IMG/VR virus record: IMGVR_UViG_2609459797_000006
Reading direction: 5' to 3' (one strand)
Length of the DNA stretch: 8,190 bases
From: a virus
Lineage: Duplodnaviria; Heunggongvirae; Uroviricota; Caudoviricetes
The translations under genes and the position numbers were made by a program. Below the pieces are notes generated by a model, which was not told where the DNA came from, made no database searches, and was given only the letters and a program-made list of their open reading frames with translations. The first letter of the stretch is position 1. Every line of letters starts with the position of its first letter. Shown here in pieces: positions 1 through 8,190 of the stretch.

Positions 1-237
1 CTGTCACCCTTTGACGTGGTGATATGGATGACGGATGGCTGGCCGCTGTATGAATCCCGCCTGAAGGGAAAGCTGCACGTAATCAGCAAGCGATATACGC
101 AGCGAATTGAGCGGCATAACCTGAATCTGAGGCAGCACCTGGCACGGCTGGGACGGAAGTCGCTGTCGTTCTCAAAATCGGTGGAGCTGCATGACAAAGT
201 CATCGGGCATTATCTGAACATAAAACACTATCAATAA
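1..237 (+). CDS. insB: IS1 transposase InsB, C-terminal part (5' end lies outside the window)
   Basis: Open frame runs from nt 1 to the TAA at 235-237; the listed 73-aa ORF (16-237) is only the part after an internal Met. Sequence recognised as InsB. Confidence 0.88.
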
Positions 238-389: not shown

Positions 390-2159
390 TTACTTTTGAT
401 TTTCTCCACTGTTATGAGATGTATCATTCCACATAGGCATCCAGTCTTCTGAGTCGTCGTGAAGCGTGACGTTTGACCTTATGCCATGTTTTGTTTTGCG
501 CTTCTGGTACTCCTTGCCATATTCAGCCATTGCGCCTGGCATATCCGTACCGAACCTCATCAGCGATACCGGCTTGCTCAGACCATTAGCCCGCATATAA
601 GCCAGATAAGCGTGATACAGATAACGGCGCGGGCTGAATGGCACGATCTCGGCATTGCCAATCAGCATTCCATCACAAACCACCGAAGCCATCAGGTAGC
701 CGCAAAAGTCCACCAGTGAATCCCCTTCACGTTTGATGGCCAGCGCTTCTTCTGATTTCTGCTGCTCATGCAAAAGCTGTTTGGCTTCGTCCTGCCTGGA
801 AAAGCGAGTGAGCAGGTGGCGAATGATTACAGCCAGCTCACCTTCAATCTTCTCGGCCAGCATAGGATCGCGTTCGTTTTCCGGTACCACTTCGGAGAAG
901 TTGAAAATCACCCGCCGTCTGGAAACCCCCCCGCTTCTGTCGCTGAACGACATGGCATTGTTATTGACGGCAAGCACCACCGCTGGAATACGGGTTGAAT
1001 ATGGCGCTTTGTGTTTAGGGTCAATGGCTACCTTATCCCCGCCAGTGATAGCTTTAATCCCTGCGCCGTCGCCAGCGTACCGGGTCATATCCGGCATGAT
1101 AATCAGCGAATAGCCCACTACCAGCGCCCTTTCCCTTGGGTTCTCCAGCGCCGCCATGCTCGCTGATACGGTGTTGGCCTTGCCCGCCAGCATCGTGCAG
1201 ATCTCAGCCATAACACTTTTACCACTTCCGCCCGGCCCCGTTACCTCAAGAAACAGCTGCCAGTCGTACCGGTTCGCCAGCACCATAAACAGCGCAGACA
1301 GTACGCGGTCTGCTTTTCGGTCATTATCCGCCACTGAGCGGCGGAGCCATTTCCAGAAGTTCGGCGCATGGGTTGCCAGAGTCTCTCCTTCTGCTGGTTC
1401 GCTGAATGGCAATTCGCTCGCAACGATAAGCCAGTCCTTTTTATCATGCGGTCGAAATTGGCCTAACCGGGTATCAAAAACCCCGTTGCTGAAACCAATA
1501 AGATTTCGGGCTGTATTACCCATCACTGGCAGACCCAGCTTCATTGTATCGACAGCGGATTTAATCGCGTTCTGCGAATAGGCGACTTCGGCATCAATAA
1601 AAATTTGCGCCATTTCCCGCTGTAGCTCTTTATCCGAAAGCGGAACCCACACCACGCCGTTGTAATGATGAACCGTGTCAGAATCAGCATGGATCGCCAG
1701 ATTGCCATCGTAATGAGCAAGCAGAACCTCCCCGCGCTGGCTGGCTCCCATCTGGTTAAGCGCTGGCGTAGCACTACCCCTCGTAGTCACCATTAGGGGC
1801 TCGTCTTCCAAACGCTTCATTAATGGCGTCCAGTCCTCTTTCTCACCTTTTTCGTTGATAAACTCAGCATTGGTAACGCCAGCCTCACACAGCTTATTTG
1901 CAATCATGCTGATTTGGTTTTGCTCGATAAGTCCGGCCTGACAGACACGAGCAAACCGACGGCCTTTATCAACAATGCGCAGGTGTGGCAATTCCGCCAG
2001 TTGGGTGTGATCCAGAACCACAGGTGGAACATCGTCTCCATGCTCGCCCTTGCCTTTCTGGTAATCCTGAGCGGCTTTCCATGCTCCCGTTCCAGCAAAG
2101 ATGATGGCCTCCTCCATTTTGTCGCGCGGGAGGGTTTTCACATTAGGCGCGTTTTTCAT
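390..2159 (-). CDS. P4 alpha-type replication protein (D5_N-like region plus SF3 helicase; phage/plasmid primase P4-family C-terminal domain), 589 aa
   Basis: Long ORF with Walker A motif VTGPGGSGKS, Walker B-like hydrophobic stretch ending in D (SLIIMPD) and overall resemblance to P4 alpha / poxvirus D5-type helicases. ATG start at 2157-2159 preceded by a GGGGG Shine-Dalgarno-like run. The iteron cluster lies just downstream. Family assignment from motif recognition only. Confidence 0.8.
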   Translation of the reverse strand: MKNAPNVKTLPRDKMEEAIIFAGTGAWKAAQDYQKGKGEHGDDVPPVVLDHTQLAELPHLRIVDKGRRFARVCQAGLIEQNQISMIANKLCEAGVTNAEFINEKGEKEDWTPLMKRLEDEPLMVTTRGSATPALNQMGASQRGEVLLAHYDGNLAIHADSDTVHHYNGVVWVPLSDKELQREMAQIFIDAEVAYSQNAIKSAVDTMKLGLPVMGNTARNLIGFSNGVFDTRLGQFRPHDKKDWLIVASELPFSEPAEGETLATHAPNFWKWLRRSVADNDRKADRVLSALFMVLANRYDWQLFLEVTGPGGSGKSVMAEICTMLAGKANTVSASMAALENPRERALVVGYSLIIMPDMTRYAGDGAGIKAITGGDKVAIDPKHKAPYSTRIPAVVLAVNNNAMSFSDRSGGVSRRRVIFNFSEVVPENERDPMLAEKIEGELAVIIRHLLTRFSRQDEAKQLLHEQQKSEEALAIKREGDSLVDFCGYLMASVVCDGMLIGNAEIVPFSPRRYLYHAYLAYMRANGLSKPVSLMRFGTDMPGAMAEYGKEYQKRKTKHGIRSNVTLHDDSEDWMPMWNDTSHNSGENQK

Positions 2160-2334
2160 CTTTCAGCCCCCAGCTAACGAAAGTGAACTCTTTAACGAAC
2201 CTTTCCAGCGGAAAGATGCACGGAAAATCGTAACCATCACGCACAAACGTTACCCGGTTAAATGCGTTATCTTTCACCGTGACCAGTTCGCCGCGCTTAT
2301 CCTTCCAGCTATCGTTGATTTCAGGATTTCGCAC
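2143..2334 (-). CDS. Small hypothetical protein (63 aa), GTG start, overlaps both neighbours
   Basis: GTG at 2332-2334 preceded by GGAGG at 6-nt spacing; overlaps the upstream ORF by 14 nt and the helicase start by 17 nt (TAA 2143-2145). No family recognised. Could also be an overlap artefact. Confidence 0.4.
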   Translation of the reverse strand: MRNPEINDSWKDKRGELVTVKDNAFNRVTFVRDGYDFPCIFPLERFVKEFTFVSWGLKDEKRA

Positions 2335-2536
2335 TGTAAGCCTCCCGCGCCTTCACCAGCTCGCCGATAGATTTGTGCAGCAGAGACATAATTGCTCCGA
2401 CACGGCACGCTTCCTCACGGTGTTCTTCACCGTCGGGAATGCTGTCAATCCACATGCTCAGCACAGACATTGCGCACTCACTTTCTGAAAGGGCATTTTC
2501 AGCGTGCATCAGGACTTCAAAAGGAACCTGTCTCAC
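2321..2536 (-). CDS. Small hypothetical protein (71 aa), GTG start overlapping the upstream stop (GTGA)
   Basis: GTG at 2534-2536 preceded by GGAGAG; the stop TGA of the upstream 64-aa ORF overlaps this start, indicating translational coupling. Acidic, Cys/His-containing sequence; no family recognised. Confidence 0.5.
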   Translation of the reverse strand: MRQVPFEVLMHAENALSESECAMSVLSMWIDSIPDGEEHREEACRVGAIMSLLHKSIGELVKAREAYSAKS

Positions 2537-2727
2537 TTTGTCTCTCCCATGTGCAGCTCGGCGATTAATGCCCGGTGAATTTCCTGATTAAAATCACACG
2601 CAATAGAAATCAGATTCAGCAGCGTTTCTGAACATTCAGCAGAGGCTTTTTCCAGGATGGTTTCGTAAAGTGATGAAGCCAGCGCTGATTTATATTCGGC
2701 CTGCTCCAGACAGATTGGCTCACGCAT
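2533..2727 (-). CDS. Small hypothetical protein (64 aa)
   Basis: ATG at 2725-2727 preceded by a strong AGGAGG Shine-Dalgarno at ~6 nt; the start overlaps the stop of the upstream ORF (ATGCGTGA). No family recognised. Confidence 0.6.
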
Positions 2728-2911
2728 AGCGAACCTCCTGAACTGGTAGACGGCCAGCGCATACCATCACGCAGCCAGCCGGTGATTGCTCACGGGCTTC
2801 GCGCTCAGTGTTAGCTGTGATGTGAATGACGTTGCGACCGATGGCGCTCAGTGCAAGAAAACGCCAGATGTAGGACTTCCGCCCTTGCGGGTGTGTGATA
2901 TGATCTTTCAT
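2720..2911 (-). CDS. Small hypothetical protein (63 aa; [18 protein letters not shown]...), first gene of the minus-strand operon leading to the helicase/primase
   Basis: Chosen start is the ATG at 2909-2911 with GAGG 6-9 nt upstream. The listed 324-aa ORF (2720-3694) extends this frame upstream across the opposite-strand RHH gene and looks spurious there. An alternative ATG at 2996-2998 lacks a Shine-Dalgarno. Confidence 0.45.
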
Positions 2912-2999
2912 AGCTGCCTCGTTACTTTCGCTAACGGTGGTGGTTAGAGGCCCGGTTAGTGTTCCACCACTGCCGGGCTTTGCTTTACTAAAAGTCATG

Positions 3000-3057
3000 C
3001 AATGTAGTACATTGTCAACTCCACTACAGACTAGACCACAGGAGTTGACAATGTCAA
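3000..3057. promoter_or_regulatory. Divergent promoter/operator region with nested palindromes built on TTGACA/TGTCAA half-sites
   Basis: Seen directly: perfect 15-bp palindrome CAATGTAGTACATTG (3000-3014); perfect 13-bp inverted repeat CATTGTCAACTCC (3010-3022) / GGAGTTGACAATG (3041-3053) with an 18-bp spacer; palindrome TTGACA-A-TGTCAA (3045-3057) spanning the RHH start codon. Lies between divergent genes. Confidence 0.55.
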
Positions 3058-3224
3058 CAAGCGAAAATAAAGAGCGCCATGTTGTGCAGCTCAGACTCGA
3101 TAAAGAACTGTCAGAGCGGCTCGCTTTAGCGATGAAAGAAGACGGTGACGATAATAAGTCGGGATGGATAAAACGCCTTTTGCGCCGTGAACTTGATAAG
3201 CGCGGCATCGAGCCAAAAGGCTGA
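3051..3224 (+). CDS. Small ribbon-helix-helix (CopG/Arc/Mnt-like) DNA-binding protein, 57 aa; candidate repressor of the divergent replication operon
   Basis: ATG at 3051 preceded by AGGAG (3042-3046). Sequence [50 protein letters not shown] has a beta-strand-then-two-helices layout typical of RHH proteins. Fold inferred from sequence pattern only. Confidence 0.55.
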
Positions 3225-3543
3225 ACAGGGTTACTCCCCGTAATGCTGTGGACTGCCCCTCTTAAAAAGGGTCTGTTTTGCGCAACTATTAATGAGTTGT
3301 GCAGAGGCTCCCCTCTTAAAGAGGGTTGGTTATCTTCGCAGCTCTCTACGTTTTTCGTCGGAGCCTCTAAACCACGTTTAACGTTGTTTTGCCATGAACC
3401 CGAATACTGTTCGCCTTTGTCTCGATCTCCGTACGTTAAACGTACGCGGTTAATTTGTGCGTACGGATTTCGTCGGCTCAAGGTTTGACCACCAGCGGCA
3501 AGCCTGGTAATCTGGCGATGTTTCTGTAAAGCGGTATTGCACT

Positions 3544-3571
3544 GGCGGCCCGGCATGGCCGCCTTTGTTTT
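3544..3571 (+). terminator. Rho-independent terminator on the plus strand (GGCGGCC-CGGCAT-GGCCGCC followed by TTTGTTTT)
   Basis: Perfect 7-bp GC stem with 6-nt loop and T-rich tail, seen directly. Sits ~320 nt downstream of the RHH stop and just outside the 3' end of the convergent 230-aa gene. Confidence 0.55.
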
Positions 3572-3576
3572 GCCTG

Positions 3577-4269
3577 TCATACAATAGCCTCCACTTTCAG
3601 CCCGCCAGCGGTATACCCCTGAACCCGAACACCATCGACGCGATGACGCTTTTTCGTCAGAAAGCGGATGTGATCTGCGTAGACGTACTGCCATTTACCA
3701 TCGAGTGCCACACGTTTAAACCACGGATGAGGCTTAGATATGGTCTGGACAACTGGCGCGGAAGCCTTGCAGGGCGTGGGTTCTGCTGTGCATACCCCCT
3801 TATCGTTACCCGTTACTCTATACAGCCAGTAACTTGCCAGCTTCCCGGTCAATTTACGGGTGCGCACGGGGATATAACCCGCCTCACGCATCGCCTTACC
3901 AAAAGTGGCATCGTCCGGGTAATACTGGCGGCGTAGTTCCGTAGATACTGAAACGGCAAAGCTGCGTTTAGTCGGGTATTCCTGCCACTGGCCGACAAAT
4001 TCAAAAGGAAGACCATTAACCCTTCCTTTGGTCTTGTCCTTGCCGCTTATCCCTACATCATGGTCTGCCTCATGCACGGACACGCCGGAACGCAGCCACA
4101 CCAGCCCGTTACCGTTGTGGCGCAACCCCAGATCGGCAAGCGTAAATTCACCGCGATTAATGGGCGACCAGTCACCGGAAATAACCTGTTTACGGTTCGC
4201 TGAAATATCGTGCTGGCTGGCTACAGGGTGAGCGAATCCCTGCCCGTGGAGGGCATTAATCTTTTTCAT
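3577..4269 (-). CDS. Hypothetical protein, 230 aa, encoded immediately downstream of the AlpA-like gene
   Basis: Uninterrupted ORF with ATG start 20 nt downstream of the alpA-like stop. No catalytic motif recognised; family not assignable by eye. Confidence 0.65.
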
Positions 4270-4289
4270 CTCAGATTACCTGTGGTTAA

Positions 4290-4574
4290 TTAAGCAGATT
4301 TACGGCTGTATGGGTTATTGACGTTCTCTACTGCTGGCGGATTACGAACCCACCAGAGCACATCCGAAAGAAGCCAAGCACAGCTATTGCGGCCAAAGTG
4401 ACAGCGCGGAGGGAAGCGCCCCTGCTGCTCCATCTTCCAGCGGCTGGAACGGGAAAGACTGGTGATCTCGCTGCATTCATCTTCACGGATTCGGCGATCA
4501 AACTTAAAGCCGTACTCTTCTAAAAGGGTGCGGCGCTGTTCAGGATTTGGCGGGGTAAAGGTTATATTTTGCAT
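4290..4574 (-). CDS. AlpA/Vis-family phage regulatory protein (MerR-type HTH; transcriptional activator/excision regulator), 94 aa
   Basis: GGAGG Shine-Dalgarno 5-6 nt before the ATG at 4572-4574. Region ...SEITSLSRSSRWKMEQQGRFPPRCHFGRNSCAWLLSDVLWWVRN matches the AlpA pattern (LSRST-Y...G-FP....G...W...-V--W). The family includes E. coli CP4-57 AlpA and P4 Vis, recalled from memory. Confidence 0.75.
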   Translation of the reverse strand: MQNITFTPPNPEQRRTLLEEYGFKFDRRIREDECSEITSLSRSSRWKMEQQGRFPPRCHFGRNSCAWLLSDVLWWVRNPPAVENVNNPYSRKSA

Positions 4575-4623
4575 GCTGCCTCCACTGTTTCAATGTTATG
4601 CGAAGAGATTAGTGGATAAACGA

Positions 4624-4699
4624 CCAGAATTTCCATTGATTCTGGAATCCTTTAAAAGAACATGCAATTCCATTGAAAGATAGAAATTCCATCAAGATA
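4624..4699. promoter_or_regulatory. Repeat motifs upstream of the alpA-like gene: inverted repeat CCAGAAT-N8-ATTCTGG and three copies of TTCCATYRA
   Basis: Seen directly: CCAGAAT 4624-4630 / ATTCTGG 4639-4645; TTCCATTGA 4631-4639 and 4668-4676; TTCCATCAA 4691-4699. Lie 50-125 bp upstream of the alpA-like start. Function inferred. Confidence 0.35.
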
Positions 4700-4830
4700 A
4701 CGCTCCCCTGTTTAAAACAGTTTCCACAGTAATTTCAACGGCTGTCTCGAGAGAAAAAATCATGAATTTCAATAACTCGCCGAAGATCACCGTTCTTTAA
4801 CGATTTGATTCACCTTGGATTGTTCATAAC

Positions 4831-5164: not shown

Positions 5165-5815
5165 TCATTCCGTATAATAAATCGAATTTAATGCCTTTCG
5201 AATTTTCTCATATATTGCTGATTTAGATAATCCAGTTTTAGATATACCTTCCTCATCAGCTAATTTATATAGTTCGTTTAAAATAGCCGAGATGCTTGGT
5301 TTTTTAGAGGTGCCAAACGAATGGCCTATCTTATGTGCTATAAGCTTGACCAGCATCCCCATTAATTTATCATTATATTCCTTTTCATCTTCTTTACGAT
5401 GCAAGCCGCGTTTGCTGCTTTTCAATGCAATTCCGACCTGTAAAAGCTCATCCCCTCCCATAGCATAAAGATGCTCTTTTCCTTTGTTTTGATTAGCAAT
5501 TATAGCCACCGCCGCAAGGCATCTGTCCTTTATGGGTTGTGGTGTAATATCTTCATCAATAAGAGGATATGCCAGAGCAAACATATAGTCTGCGGGATAG
5601 GCTGTTGAGTTTCCACCTCGAAATAATTTAGATGCTGATAACCATCTACTCAGTTGTCGATAGTATATATTGTAAGCTTCAACTTTCGCTTCAGGGATAT
5701 CAGCAGTTTTAACTGTCGGATCTACCCCACACATAAGTAGTGCAAGTTGTTTAATATTTAGCTCCGGGGCTTTGGCTTCTCGCTCGAAAATACCCAATTT
5801 TAGAAAACTAGTCAT
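5165..5815 (-). CDS. Hypothetical protein, 216 aa, AT-rich, translationally coupled to the integrase (TAATG overlap); possible C-terminal HTH
   Basis: ATG at 5813-5815 overlaps the integrase stop TAA (5815-5817). Base composition visibly more AT-rich than flanking genes. C-terminal segment ISKTGLSKSAIYEKIRKA resembles a helix-turn-helix. No known family recognised. Confidence 0.7.
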   Translation of the reverse strand: MTSFLKLGIFEREAKAPELNIKQLALLMCGVDPTVKTADIPEAKVEAYNIYYRQLSRWLSASKLFRGGNSTAYPADYMFALAYPLIDEDITPQPIKDRCLAAVAIIANQNKGKEHLYAMGGDELLQVGIALKSSKRGLHRKEDEKEYNDKLMGMLVKLIAHKIGHSFGTSKKPSISAILNELYKLADEEGISKTGLSKSAIYEKIRKALNSIYYTE

Positions 5816-7035
5816 TATTCAGCCTTATTCAACAAAACAATGTTAGTGAATCCACCTGATAAAATATCAAGTCTGTCATACCATTTATTCAACGCATCCA
5901 GTTTCTCAGGCAAGTACAGACTACGGTTATAAATCGCCATGACTCCCGGCATTGAGTGCCCCAGCAACTGTTCGACAACGTGTGGTGCTATACCCATATT
6001 ATTCATATGCGTTGCTAAAGTTCGTCTTAGATCGTGCAGTGTCCATGGTTCAGAATGCCCTAGCTTTTTATAAACGCCGCGGCCCCACTGACTTACCGCT
6101 TCACTGCCTTTAACCGACCCAAGCAAAAGGCCGGATCGTTTCGTTTCATCATGCAGTATTTCAATGAATTTGCGCATGGCATCCGGCACAGGTCTTACAA
6201 TCTTCTCGCCACCCTTGCTGTGCTCTTTGGGAACTGTCCAGACCCAGGCATCCATATCCCATTCACTCCACTCTGATAGCCTGGCCTCCTGCGTTCGGCA
6301 CCCAAACACTATTAAGATTGTCAGTAGCCTGGTGTAGTAAGGCATGAAGCAAGTGCCAGAGGAAATGGCAGCCCATAAATCGCCAGCCTCTTTATCGTTT
6401 AATACCCGGTCTTTTTTTGCCTGTTTTTTACCGACATCTGGAATTGTTAAATCTTCAAGCGCGGTACTCACAGCATAGCGACGAACCCGGCAGAATTTCA
6501 GGGCTTGTTTGCACATCTGGAACACATAACCTGCGGCGACTGGAGTTTTCTTTTTCATCCTGTCAAAGCAGTCAAGCCAGTATCGTGTTTCACAGTCAGC
6601 GAGCGCCATTTTCCCTATATAAGGATAAATGTGTTTTCGCAGCTCCGCTTTGTGCCGTTCAACATTCGCGCGGTTCTCTTCTGCATATTCGCGTATCCAG
6701 TATTCTATAGCTTCCTTAACAGTGACCGGTTTAAGGGTTTCCTGAGTAGTCAACGCCAACTGGTGCTTTGGATCTTTACCTGAGGCCAGCCACTGGCGGC
6801 ATTTATCACGCGATGAACGGGCTTCTTTGAGGCTCATATCCGGGTATCGTCCCAGAGTCAGACGATGCAGCTTCTGCCCGTCAAGTCGGTAAGTAAACAC
6901 CCAGCTAATACCACCAGCTTTAGTTACCTTGGCGCTCAGCCCGGCACCATCAGCATAGAACTCAATCTTACTGGCCGGGATACCATGTAATCCCTTTAAC
7001 TTCCTGTCGCTCAGTTTGTTAAGTTCCCCAGCCAT
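5815..7035 (-). CDS. int: P4-type tyrosine integrase (site-specific recombinase), 406 aa
   Basis: N-terminal segment (SDRKLKGL...KIEFYADGAGLSAKVTKAGGISWVFTYRLDGQKLHRLTLGRYPDMSLKEAR) matches the P4-integrase arm-binding domain pattern. C-terminal region carries HDLRRT (His-x-x-Arg) and GHSMPGVMAIYNRS (catalytic Tyr). ATG at 7033-7035. Confidence 0.9.
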   Translation of the reverse strand: MAGELNKLSDRKLKGLHGIPASKIEFYADGAGLSAKVTKAGGISWVFTYRLDGQKLHRLTLGRYPDMSLKEARSSRDKCRQWLASGKDPKHQLALTTQETLKPVTVKEAIEYWIREYAEENRANVERHKAELRKHIYPYIGKMALADCETRYWLDCFDRMKKKTPVAAGYVFQMCKQALKFCRVRRYAVSTALEDLTIPDVGKKQAKKDRVLNDKEAGDLWAAISSGTCFMPYYTRLLTILIVFGCRTQEARLSEWSEWDMDAWVWTVPKEHSKGGEKIVRPVPDAMRKFIEILHDETKRSGLLLGSVKGSEAVSQWGRGVYKKLGHSEPWTLHDLRRTLATHMNNMGIAPHVVEQLLGHSMPGVMAIYNRSLYLPEKLDALNKWYDRLDILSGGFTNIVLLNKAE

Positions 7036-7281: not shown

Positions 7282-7305
7282 ATAGGTGTCACAAAGGGAG
7301 TGACC

Positions 7306-8190
7306 ATGAGAACAGGATGTGAACCGACCCGGTTTGGTAATGAAGCTAAGACCATTATTCACGGTGATGCCCTTGCCGAACTTAAAAAGCTACCTACTGA
7401 AAGCGTCGATCTGATCTTTGCCGACCCACCGTATAACATCGGTAAAAATTTTGATGGTCTGATCGAAGCCTGGAAAGAAGATCTGTTTATCGACTGGCTG
7501 TTTGAAGTGATTGCAGAGTGCCACCGCGTTCTGAAAAAGCAGGGCAGCATGTACATTATGAACAGTACGGAAAACATGCCCTTTATCGATCTCCAGTGCC
7601 GCAAGCTTTTTACCATCAAAAGTCGCATCGTCTGGTCATATGACAGTTCTGGAGTACAGGCGAAAAAACACTACGGCTCCATGTACGAACCCATCCTGAT
7701 GATGGTGAAAGACGCAAAGAACTACACATTCAACGGTGATGCTATTCTGGTAGAAGCCAAAACCGGATCGCAGCGCGCGTTGATCGATTATCGCAAAAAT
7801 CCTCCACAGCCATACAATCATCAAAAAGTACCGGGTAACGTCTGGGATTTTCCGCGCGTGCGTTATTTAATGGATGAATATGAGAACCACCCGACGCAAA
7901 AACCGGAAGCCTTACTGAAACGCATTATTCTCGCCTCTTCCAACCCAGGCGATATCGTTCTCGACCCGTTTGCCGGTAGCTTTACTACCGGTGCCGTAGC
8001 CATCGCCAGCGGACGAAAATTCATTGGTATTGAGATCAACAGCGAGTACATCAAAATGGGGCTTCGACGGCTGGATGTCGCGTCGCATTACTCCGCGGAA
8101 GAACTGGCGAAAGTGAAAAAAAGAAAGACGGGCAACCGGTCAAAACGATGCCGGGTTAGCGAAGTTGACCCCGATCTCATTGCAAAGTAA
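7306..8190 (+). CDS. yhdJ: DNA adenine (N6) methyltransferase YhdJ, 294 aa
   Basis: Sequence MRTGCEPTRFGNEAKTIIHGDALAELKK...DLIFADPPYNIGKNF...LDPFAGSFTTG recognised as E. coli YhdJ, with DPPY catalytic motif and SAM-binding motif in beta-class order. ATG at 7306 with AGGGAG Shine-Dalgarno preferred over the GTG at 7300 listed in the ORF track; TAA at 8188-8190. Confidence 0.85.
   Translation: MRTGCEPTRFGNEAKTIIHGDALAELKKLPTESVDLIFADPPYNIGKNFDGLIEAWKEDLFIDWLFEVIAECHRVLKKQGSMYIMNSTENMPFIDLQCRKLFTIKSRIVWSYDSSGVQAKKHYGSMYEPILMMVKDAKNYTFNGDAILVEAKTGSQRALIDYRKNPPQPYNHQKVPGNVWDFPRVRYLMDEYENHPTQKPEALLKRIILASSNPGDIVLDPFAGSFTTGAVAIASGRKFIGIEINSEYIKMGLRRLDVASHYSAEELAKVKKRKTGNRSKRCRVSEVDPDLIAK

Follow-up and report, generated by a model that had tools for sequence, protein, structure and literature searches.

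What is encoded by the four small, overlapping open reading frames (ORFs) that lie ahead of the primase/helicase gene in IMG/VR virus record IMGVR_UViG_2609459797_000006, and how might their expression be arranged? The record is a stretch of 8,190 nt (the window), whose coordinates are used throughout; the ORFs are read on the minus strand in the order ORF4, ORF3, ORF2, ORF1, and then the primase gene (Table 1). The element that carries them is a satellite of the phage-inducible chromosomal island (PICI) type located beside yhdJ, and its near-identical relatives are capsid-forming PICIs (cf-PICIs). The explanation favored here, held at a probability of roughly 65%, is that the four genes belong to a coupled PICI operon that is the counterpart of the left operon of P4, in which a long reading frame ending in ORF4 would be translated for the sake of read-through and the products of ORF3 and ORF2 would assemble into a heteromer.

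The ORF list and the sequence agreed with the initial annotation in placing four overlapping, coupled small ORFs upstream of the primase/helicase gene in the same orientation. As read from the sequence, the ORF4 stop and the ORF3 start share 8 nt (ATGCGTGA, 2727 to 2720), the ORF3 stop and the ORF2 start share 4 nt (GTGA, 2536 to 2533), ORF2 and ORF1 overlap by 14 nt (2334 to 2321), and ORF1 overlaps the primase start by 17 nt (2159 to 2143). Clear Shine-Dalgarno sequences had been claimed for three of the ORFs and were seen for all four: GAGG (2920 to 2917) for ORF4, AGGAGG (2739 to 2734) for ORF3, GGGAGAG (2548 to 2542) for ORF2, and GGGAGG (2346 to 2341) for ORF1. Two further statements of that annotation had to be revised. 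The block neither leads nor opens the operon, as the chain runs unbroken upstream to alpA (4574) and ORF4 is nested in a 286-codon frame. Nor are its products unrecognizable, since ORF4 is Icd-like, ORF1 belongs to DUF4222, and all four ORFs are annotated in RefSeq Escherichia coli genomes that are 99.7 to 99.8% identical across the block.

Fifty related loci were gathered, with a search with ORF3 used for the gathering; a scan of species-representative genomes yielded only 4 loci. The chain of an Icd-like gene, a 64-aa gene, and a 68- to 72-aa gene, with identical overlaps of 8 and 4 nt, was found in about 40 loci from Escherichia, Klebsiella, Enterobacter, Citrobacter, Salmonella, and IMG/VR contigs, and it was followed by at least three types of primase (583 to 589 aa with D5_N only, about 780 aa with Zn-ribbon/Toprim, and 891 aa with DUF927). 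Median ratios of nonsynonymous to synonymous substitution (dN/dS; Nei-Gojobori, over pairs of loci) were 0.14 for ORF3, 0.18 for ORF2, 0.18 for ORF1 (one informative pair), and 0.46 for ORF4, and the variable sites of ORF3 and ORF2 were concentrated at third codon positions. The check that had been proposed at the outset, on conservation in related elements and on the synonymous versus nonsynonymous pattern, thus came out on the side of coding. Judged by these comparisons, the four small ORFs are genuine, translationally coupled protein genes that have already been catalogued. Homologues of ORF3 (55) and ORF2 (83) in a large protein collection were all unnamed and all from Enterobacterales (Enterobacteriaceae plus Serratia). 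Searches of 50,697 phage records with ORF4 and ORF2 (tblastn) returned nothing beyond vB_KppS-Ant, whose gene content marks it as a packaged cf-PICI-like element in its own right, and ORF1 gave a single, weak match in the same records, to phage Eeyore; these genes are therefore specific to satellites rather than general phage genes.

ORF4 matched the NCBIfam model NF033153 ("host cell division inhibitor Icd-like"; E = 4e-15, 55.5 bits against a cutoff of 25), as well as phrog_6196 (E = 9.5e-19) and phrog_1743 (E = 5.7e-18). The C-terminal 50 residues of the P4 ORF at 8168 to 8812 matched NF033153 (E = 1.4e-20) and phrog_1743 (E = 1.4e-20). These profile matches, shared with the P4 eta/kil ORF, place ORF4 in the Icd-like/Kil family. 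ORF4 and P4 Kil were 31% identical in an alignment; a direct BLASTP comparison of the long ORF of the window with that of P4 gave no match, and the kinship is visible through profiles only. The PHROG label "transcriptional repressor" appears to be traceable to a superseded "cI protein" annotation of P4. The alignment of phrog_6196 begins 24 "residues" upstream of the ORF4 ATG because the DNA from 2879 to 2984 is so widely conserved. The GAGG Shine-Dalgarno sequence and the ATG of ORF4 were kept in all loci.

The comparison with P4 that had been recommended for this module proved apt, through the shared Kil models and an identical 8-nt overlap. On one strand, the P4 record lists ORF88/vis, an old "cI gene product" coding sequence (CDS), epsilon, ORF151, ORF106 (cnr), and alpha, so that small genes precede a D5-type primase-helicase in the same order in P4 and in the window. 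The P4 kil gene comprises the last 65 codons of the ORF at 8168 to 8812 (ATG at 8365), and an ATG in the same frame, at 8767, shares ATGA (8767 to 8764) with the vis stop and opens a 199-codon frame that ends in kil. In P4 as in the window, then, the kil-type gene forms the in-frame end of a long ORF whose start overlaps an upstream stop, and its own stop overlaps the next start by 8 nt (GTGCGTAA at kil/epsilon, ATGCGTGA at ORF4/ORF3). According to the account of Forti et al. 1999 given in PMC10111431, the long ORF of P4 (eta) can be translated only from an upstream late promoter, its translation averts termination, with the result that genes downstream are read, and Kil is a truncated product made from an internal promoter.

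ORF3 and ORF2 were assigned to PHROG families of unknown function (phrog_35285, E = 8e-40, and phrog_2196, E = 3e-19 over residues 1 to 66, respectively). AlphaFold2 (AF2) predicted a two-helix hairpin for each, with predicted local distance difference test (pLDDT) scores of 81 for ORF3 and 92 for ORF2 (first helix, residues 6 to 32); a sequence search of the PDB with either protein returned no significant neighbor. A profile of ORF2 recovered 51 relatives among 1.84 billion cluster representatives, nearly all of them 60 to 90 aa in length. The earlier statement that GTG starts would be missed by ATG-only gene callers holds for ORF2, which is begun at ATG 2470 by the Prokaryotic Genome Annotation Pipeline (PGAP) and in RefSeq and so comprises 49 aa (2321 to 2470). 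The GTG at 2536 corresponds exactly in position to an ATG in most relatives, which makes ATGA with the ORF3 stop. Residues 1 to 22 are the best-conserved part of the family and form half of the first helix in the AF2 model. Conservation and model together indicate that GTG 2536 is the right start. ORF2 homologues lose their N-terminal helix in annotation because the window-type allele starts with GTG, and truncated homologues of 48 to 50 aa occur on hundreds of RefSeq contigs, one of them (P0115) on 312.

Among the longer matches to the ORF2 profile were two proteins, P0139 and P0171, in which homologues of ORF3 and ORF2 are fused in frame; both occupy the same syntenic slot (Table 1). Where they are separate, ORF3 and ORF2 were always adjacent and coupled, also in two loci that have no Icd-like gene (L007 and L008). 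Fusion, invariable adjacency, and persistence without the Icd-like gene therefore argue that the two act as one unit, and from the models they probably form a four-helix heteromer tied to the replication module. That such a bundle would bind another protein, either the primase-helicase or a helper or host factor, is a guess; helper or host factors are candidates because the pair sits in the epsilon/orf151 slot of P4. In L007 and L008 (Salmonella), at 3764 to 4817, genes for a 292-aa integrase-like protein and a 60-aa phrog_3672 protein were observed to precede ORF3, ORF2, and the primase gene, with 8-nt overlaps.

ORF1 matched PF13973 (DUF4222) with an E value of 9e-20 (70.4 bits against a gathering threshold of 27; profile positions 2 to 52 of 53). 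The slot before the primase gene held a DUF4222 gene in about 14 loci and was empty in about 20, the rest having an 84-aa, 108-aa, or other gene; DUF4222 was also found ahead of a RepA-type helicase in an E. coli element (L016). Only one member of DUF4222 has been characterized, RgdR (enterohemorrhagic E. coli O-island 51), a small regulator from a prophage that acts on the locus of enterocyte effacement (LEE) island. ORF1 has this Pfam domain in common with RgdR, differs in having RGE at residues 14 to 16 instead of the RGD motif, and sits ahead of a replication gene. By family assignment, ORF1 would be an optional small regulator-type protein of the RgdR family.

A different role for ORF3, ORF2, and ORF1, as host-takeover, helper-manipulating, or anti-defense proteins (for example, an epsilon-like antirepressor) instead of replication accessories, deserves to be taken seriously, even if it falls well short of being probable. 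ORFs at the epsilon and orf151 positions of P4 would suit such a role, small helical-hairpin proteins that bind host regulators (Aqs1) were among the weak structural neighbors, and RgdR regulates host virulence genes. Yet the structural matches were all nonsignificant, no sequence or profile likeness to epsilon or orf151 was detected, and the PHROGs of the three ORFs differ from those of P4 epsilon, orf151, and cnr. The ORF3-ORF2 pair, moreover, stays fixed while upstream regulators and downstream late genes vary, and it always abuts a replication gene, even where the Icd-like gene is missing. An anti-defense role in particular, which had been raised for the block, found no support: no PADLOC family was matched by the seven proteins submitted, although the PADLOC models describe defense systems and not anti-defense proteins.

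Upstream of the ORF4 ATG, 669 nt are free of stops in the ORF4 frame, back to an ATG (3580 to 3578) that overlaps the TGA (3579 to 3577) of the 230-aa gene as ATGA and is preceded 7 nt upstream by GGAGG; this junction had the same context in 8 loci. The other two frames of the stretch contain 14 and 13 stops, and none of 20,000 dinucleotide-preserving shuffles was stop-free (mean, 9.3 stops). In 39 of 44 evaluable loci, 510 to 1,290 nt were open upstream of the Icd-like ATG, with 9 to 29 stops in each other frame, and the frame was open regardless of the replacement of its middle by unrelated sequence between loci. Indels in alignable long frames were of two sizes divisible by three, 48 and 36 nt. 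Substitutions were spread evenly over codon positions (35/47/42), and dN/dS was 0.7 to 1.0, no different from that of the other frames. The long ORF was called by gene callers in L012, L010, and L015, was reported likewise from vB_KppS-Ant, and was left unannotated by PGAP. Comparison among loci thus indicates that the frame is held stop-free while its amino acid sequence is unconserved, like that of P4 eta. That the frame stays open while the amino acid sequence drifts lends indirect support to a role of its translation in preventing Rho-dependent termination, and it seems to be kept open only for being translated.

It is unlikely that only the 63-aa Icd-like gene is expressed, with the 669 nt upstream serving as untranslated regulatory DNA or RNA and owing their openness to other constraints, namely, the antisense gene, the hairpins, and the operators. 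An unconstrained amino acid sequence is what that explanation would expect, the region is rich in palindromes and hairpins, the long ORF is absent from the PGAP annotation, and stops lie near the ATG in five loci. It accounts poorly, however, for 39 loci that are stop-free despite nonhomologous middles and other frames full of stops, for indels that are without exception multiples of three, for the preserved ATGA-plus-GGAGG junction, and for an arrangement identical to that described for P4 eta/kil.

Quite unlikely, too, is a functional 286-aa effector of the Icd-like type, extended at its N terminus by a sensor or regulatory region and forming, with the small genes and the primase, an abortive-infection or superinfection-exclusion system. 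The families phrog_29966 and phrog_6928 consist of proteins of about 190 to 200 aa with a C-terminal Icd-like domain. Silas et al. (bioRxiv 10.1101/2023.04.06.535777) reported that a prophage locus of ECOR61 causes cell death upon expression of a phage accessory gene, an effect abolished by removal of the Icd-like gene, and that a P4 prophage kills cells when its regulation is perturbed by a phage protein, possibly via kil. The ECOR61 finding keeps a functional long product in consideration. Against it, the extension of the window frame has no family match, drifts neutrally at the amino acid level, is substituted by unrelated sequence between loci, and runs antisense to a conserved gene; there was no PADLOC match, and the ECOR61 element would bear on the window only if it belonged to this family.

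The overlap of ORF4 and ORF3 could also be taken to mark a toxin-antidote pair, in which the 8-nt junction would tie every synthesis of the Kil-like toxin to that of its neutralizer. The junction is strictly kept (ATGCGTGA and variants), and members of the family are toxic, P4 kil being described as lethal (PMC10111431; Silas et al., bioRxiv 10.1101/2023.04.06.535777). Such a pairing is nonetheless very unlikely, given that ORF3 and ORF2 are present without an Icd-like gene in L007 and L008, that the fusion partner of ORF3 is ORF2 instead, and that an unrelated gene, epsilon, stands at the same junction in P4. As for some of the four ORFs being chance frames in a noncoding leader, which their shortness, two GTG starts, and the lack of a Pfam or NCBIfam match for two of them might suggest, the comparative data already refute it through the dN/dS values of ORF3, ORF2, and ORF1, PHROG matches for all four, full-length homologues by the dozen, confident AF2 models for ORF3 and ORF2, and start sites and overlaps kept across loci.

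A two-hairpin leader lies within the stretch from 2879 to 2984, the most widely conserved DNA of the region among E. coli genomes. Over 18 distinct leader sequences, 93% of the cells of the alignment could pair, double (compensatory) changes were found in 5 of 13 pairs, and the covariation score was reached by none of 500 shuffles; slid controls scored much lower. Candidate roles for the leader are translational control of the Kil-like peptide, a processing site, and a termination signal. No known RNA family in Rfam matched the leader or any sequence in or around the module. At E ≤ 1, neither C4 (CI RNA) nor isrK (seqA) was found in the window or in L009, L012, and L016, and both were recovered from P4 as a positive control (74.9 and 60.8 bits); an RNA of the CI type was accordingly rejected for this element. 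Complementarities of 8 to 10 nt between the leader and upstream parts of the long frame were judged indistinguishable from chance. GC skew revealed no clear rut-like C-rich tract.

Within the long frame, on the opposite strand, lies a 57-aa gene that weakly matched the ribbon-helix-helix (RHH) family RHH_1 (E = 0.05). Its homologue in L009 matched HicB (E = 6e-4), homologues found by tblastn were 43% identical, and its slot was held by DUF3950 in L013 and by DUF3950/YlcI-type genes as replacements elsewhere. A perfect 14-bp inverted repeat (ACATTGTCAACTCC / GGAGTTGACAATGT, 3009 to 3022 and 3041 to 3054) spans the start of the 57-aa gene and is likely an operator. Different loci were seen to pair different palindromes with different small divergent genes (RHH, HicB-like, or DUF3950/YlcI). 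The palindrome CCCTCTT(T/A)AAGAGGG occurs twice in the long frame (3257 to 3271 and 3311 to 3325, 54 nt apart) and in three copies in L003, and another palindrome, CGTACGTTAAACGTACG, lies nearby (3430 to 3446). On the plus strand at 3544 to 3573, a GC-rich hairpin followed by TTTGTTTT resembles an intrinsic terminator and faces the stop of the 230-aa gene; it could end the divergent RHH-like transcript, in which case that transcript would run antisense to the long frame over its first 350 nt.

In the operation proposed for the P4-like PICI operon, the transcription unit would run unbroken from alpA (4574) through the 230-aa gene, the 286-codon frame ending in ORF4, ORF3, ORF2, and ORF1 to the end of the primase gene (390). 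Ribosomes on the long frame of the AlpA-dependent transcript would shield the RNA from premature (Rho-dependent) termination, a protection that would permit expression of ORF3, ORF2, ORF1, and the primase once induction has occurred. Transcripts from an internal promoter near 2985 to 3020 would instead allow translation of only the short, toxic Kil-like peptide, governed by the two-hairpin leader together with the RHH-like repressor from the divergent gene. ORF3 and ORF2 would associate in a small, heteromeric bundle of helices with another protein as its binding partner, and translation of ORF1 would feed into the primase start; we infer these functions of ORF3, ORF2, and ORF1. More tentatively, and as a possibility only, this branch of PICI and cf-PICI satellites may have exchanged the RNA-based immunity switch of P4 (CI RNA) for one based on protein and retained the read-through device, with a spacer of 220 to 370 codons that is selected only for translation, is free in sequence, and hosts an antisense repressor, with a leader that gates the Kil-like peptide, and with an ORF3-ORF2 heterodimer needed for replication or for exploitation of the helper.

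Several observations weigh against this explanation. The antitermination role of the long frame is drawn by analogy with P4. The frame is broken in 5 of the 44 loci (L016, L035, L037, L041, and L048) and is therefore dispensable there, and the presence of an RHH-like gene antisense within it complicates a simple reading. A sigma-70 scan of 2912 to 3100 found no consensus promoter, and the internal promoter is assumed. For ORF3 and ORF2, Foldseek searches of the PDB gave generic helical hairpins (Rop, Aqs1, and others) at E values that all exceeded 0.5 and are uninformative, and the two fusions are represented by one contig each, with low coverage in one case. Profile-profile comparison (hhalign) of ORF3, ORF2, and ORF1 with P4 epsilon, orf151, and cnr returned probabilities of 0.1 to 0.6%, that is, no similarity.

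The window also departs from P4 in several respects. P4 has CI/C4 RNA and seqA/isrK, and the window has neither by Rfam; the window has instead the divergent RHH-like gene antisense inside the long frame and the 230-aa "Bro-zone" gene between alpA and the long frame. ORF3, ORF2, and ORF1 fill the slots of epsilon, orf151, and cnr with unrelated sequences, P4 cnr being annotated as DUF5375 and ORF1 as DUF4222. The late genes of P4 are sid, delta, and psu, whereas the relatives of the window carry an HK97 capsid module.

In the immI operon of phage P1 (c4 RNA, icd, and ant), a small toxic protein of the Icd family is the first to be translated and is coupled to the next gene. An Icd-family small protein is common to P1 immI and the window, which is without c4 RNA by Rfam and whose downstream genes bear no relation to ant.

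Mageeney et al. 2023 (PMC10111431) described "fis PICIs" with Integration, Bro, Replication, and Late zones and reported Icd-like genes in most satellites of the fis type. The window fits these zones of fis PICIs and cf-PICIs with its integrase, AlpA, Bro-zone gene, and primase and with the capsid module present in near-identical relatives; it differs in that its copy is cut by IS1 about 140 nt past the primase gene. In the PICI literature consulted, including Mageeney et al. 2023 (PMC10111431), no mention was found of ORF3/ORF2, of their fusion, of a stop-free frame without CI RNA, or of a covarying leader.

Table 1. Positions of features in the window and of two fused homologues in related loci
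Feature	Position	Strand	Length	Remarks
yhdJ	7300-8190	plus		adjoins satellite
Tyrosine integrase	5815-7035	minus		
216-aa gene	5165-5815	minus	216 aa	directly after integrase; phrog_30524, E = 6e-121
AlpA-family regulator	4290-4574	minus		PF05930, E = 5e-10; first gene of co-oriented chain
"Bro zone" gene	3577-4269	minus	230 aa	stop coupled (ATGA) to long frame
Eta-like long frame	2720-3580	minus	286 codons	in frame with ORF4
RHH-like gene	3051-3224	plus	57 aa	antisense inside long frame; PGAP CDS
Two-hairpin leader	2921-2978	minus		directly upstream of ORF4 Shine-Dalgarno sequence
Leader, hairpin 1	2978-2950	minus		
Leader, C-rich linker	2949-2936	minus		CTCTAACCACCACC
Leader, hairpin 2	2935-2921	minus		
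ORF4	2720-2911	minus	63 aa	ATG start; Icd-like/P4 Kil family
ORF3	2533-2727	minus	64 aa	ATG start; phrog_35285
ORF2	2321-2536	minus	71 aa	GTG start; phrog_2196
ORF1	2143-2334	minus	63 aa	GTG start; DUF4222
Primase/helicase gene	390-2159	minus	589 aa	distal gene of chain; D5_N, DUF5906, and Pox_D5 C-terminal domains
Fusion P0139	L053:1755-2153		132 aa	54% identity to ORF3; ahead of primase
Fusion P0171	L052:597-1034		145 aa	hhalign 98.8% against ORF3 profile; ahead of DUF4222

The satellite adjoins yhdJ, which we take to be the neighbor of fis on the E. coli map. The integrase, AlpA, and primase (labeled "DNA primase family protein" in RefSeq) lie in the window itself, and the capsid module is seen only in relatives that are 97 to 99% identical. 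In E. coli TUM9754, the same element continues into genes for an HK97-type major capsid protein, prohead protease, portal, head-tail connectors, HNH endonuclease, and terminase, which is the set expected of a cf-PICI; IMG/VR contigs with the module are mostly 15 to 18 kb in length. The slot of the 230-aa gene holds Rha- or AntA-like genes in L009 and L010. The 216-aa gene had no Pfam, NCBIfam, or PADLOC match and is disrupted by IS1 in TUM9754. That IS1, between int and alpA, is a different one from that in the window, where an IS1 end (the C-terminal part of InsB, 16 to 237, plus strand) meets the satellite at 252/253, with the rest falling outside the window; alignments with all E. coli relatives begin only at 253. 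Past the primase stop, at 280 to 385, five to six GGTGAACA / GGTGAATA repeats occur in both orientations and are probably iterons of a predicted replication origin of the satellite.

The first interpretation of the block was essentially right and describes something ordinary, known families in a known type of satellite operon. Added here are the corrected start of ORF2, the recognition of ORF4 as a Kil homologue nested in an eta-like frame, the absence of CI RNA, the covarying leader, and the evidence from ORF3-ORF2 fusions. For annotation, the gain is that ORF2, truncated to 49 aa in hundreds of RefSeq contigs, is now fixed. Small hypothetical genes of Enterobacteriaceae PICIs and cf-PICIs are thereby linked to the well-studied left operon of P4, and the predictions that follow are of a frame that is kept for being translated and not for the protein it yields, of a structured leader before a toxic Kil-like gene, and of an obligate ORF3-ORF2 pair that would always accompany the satellite primase. 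Because cf-PICIs cross enterobacterial genera, the way in which their replication operons are switched bears on the biology of satellites and their helpers and on Icd-linked abortive infection.

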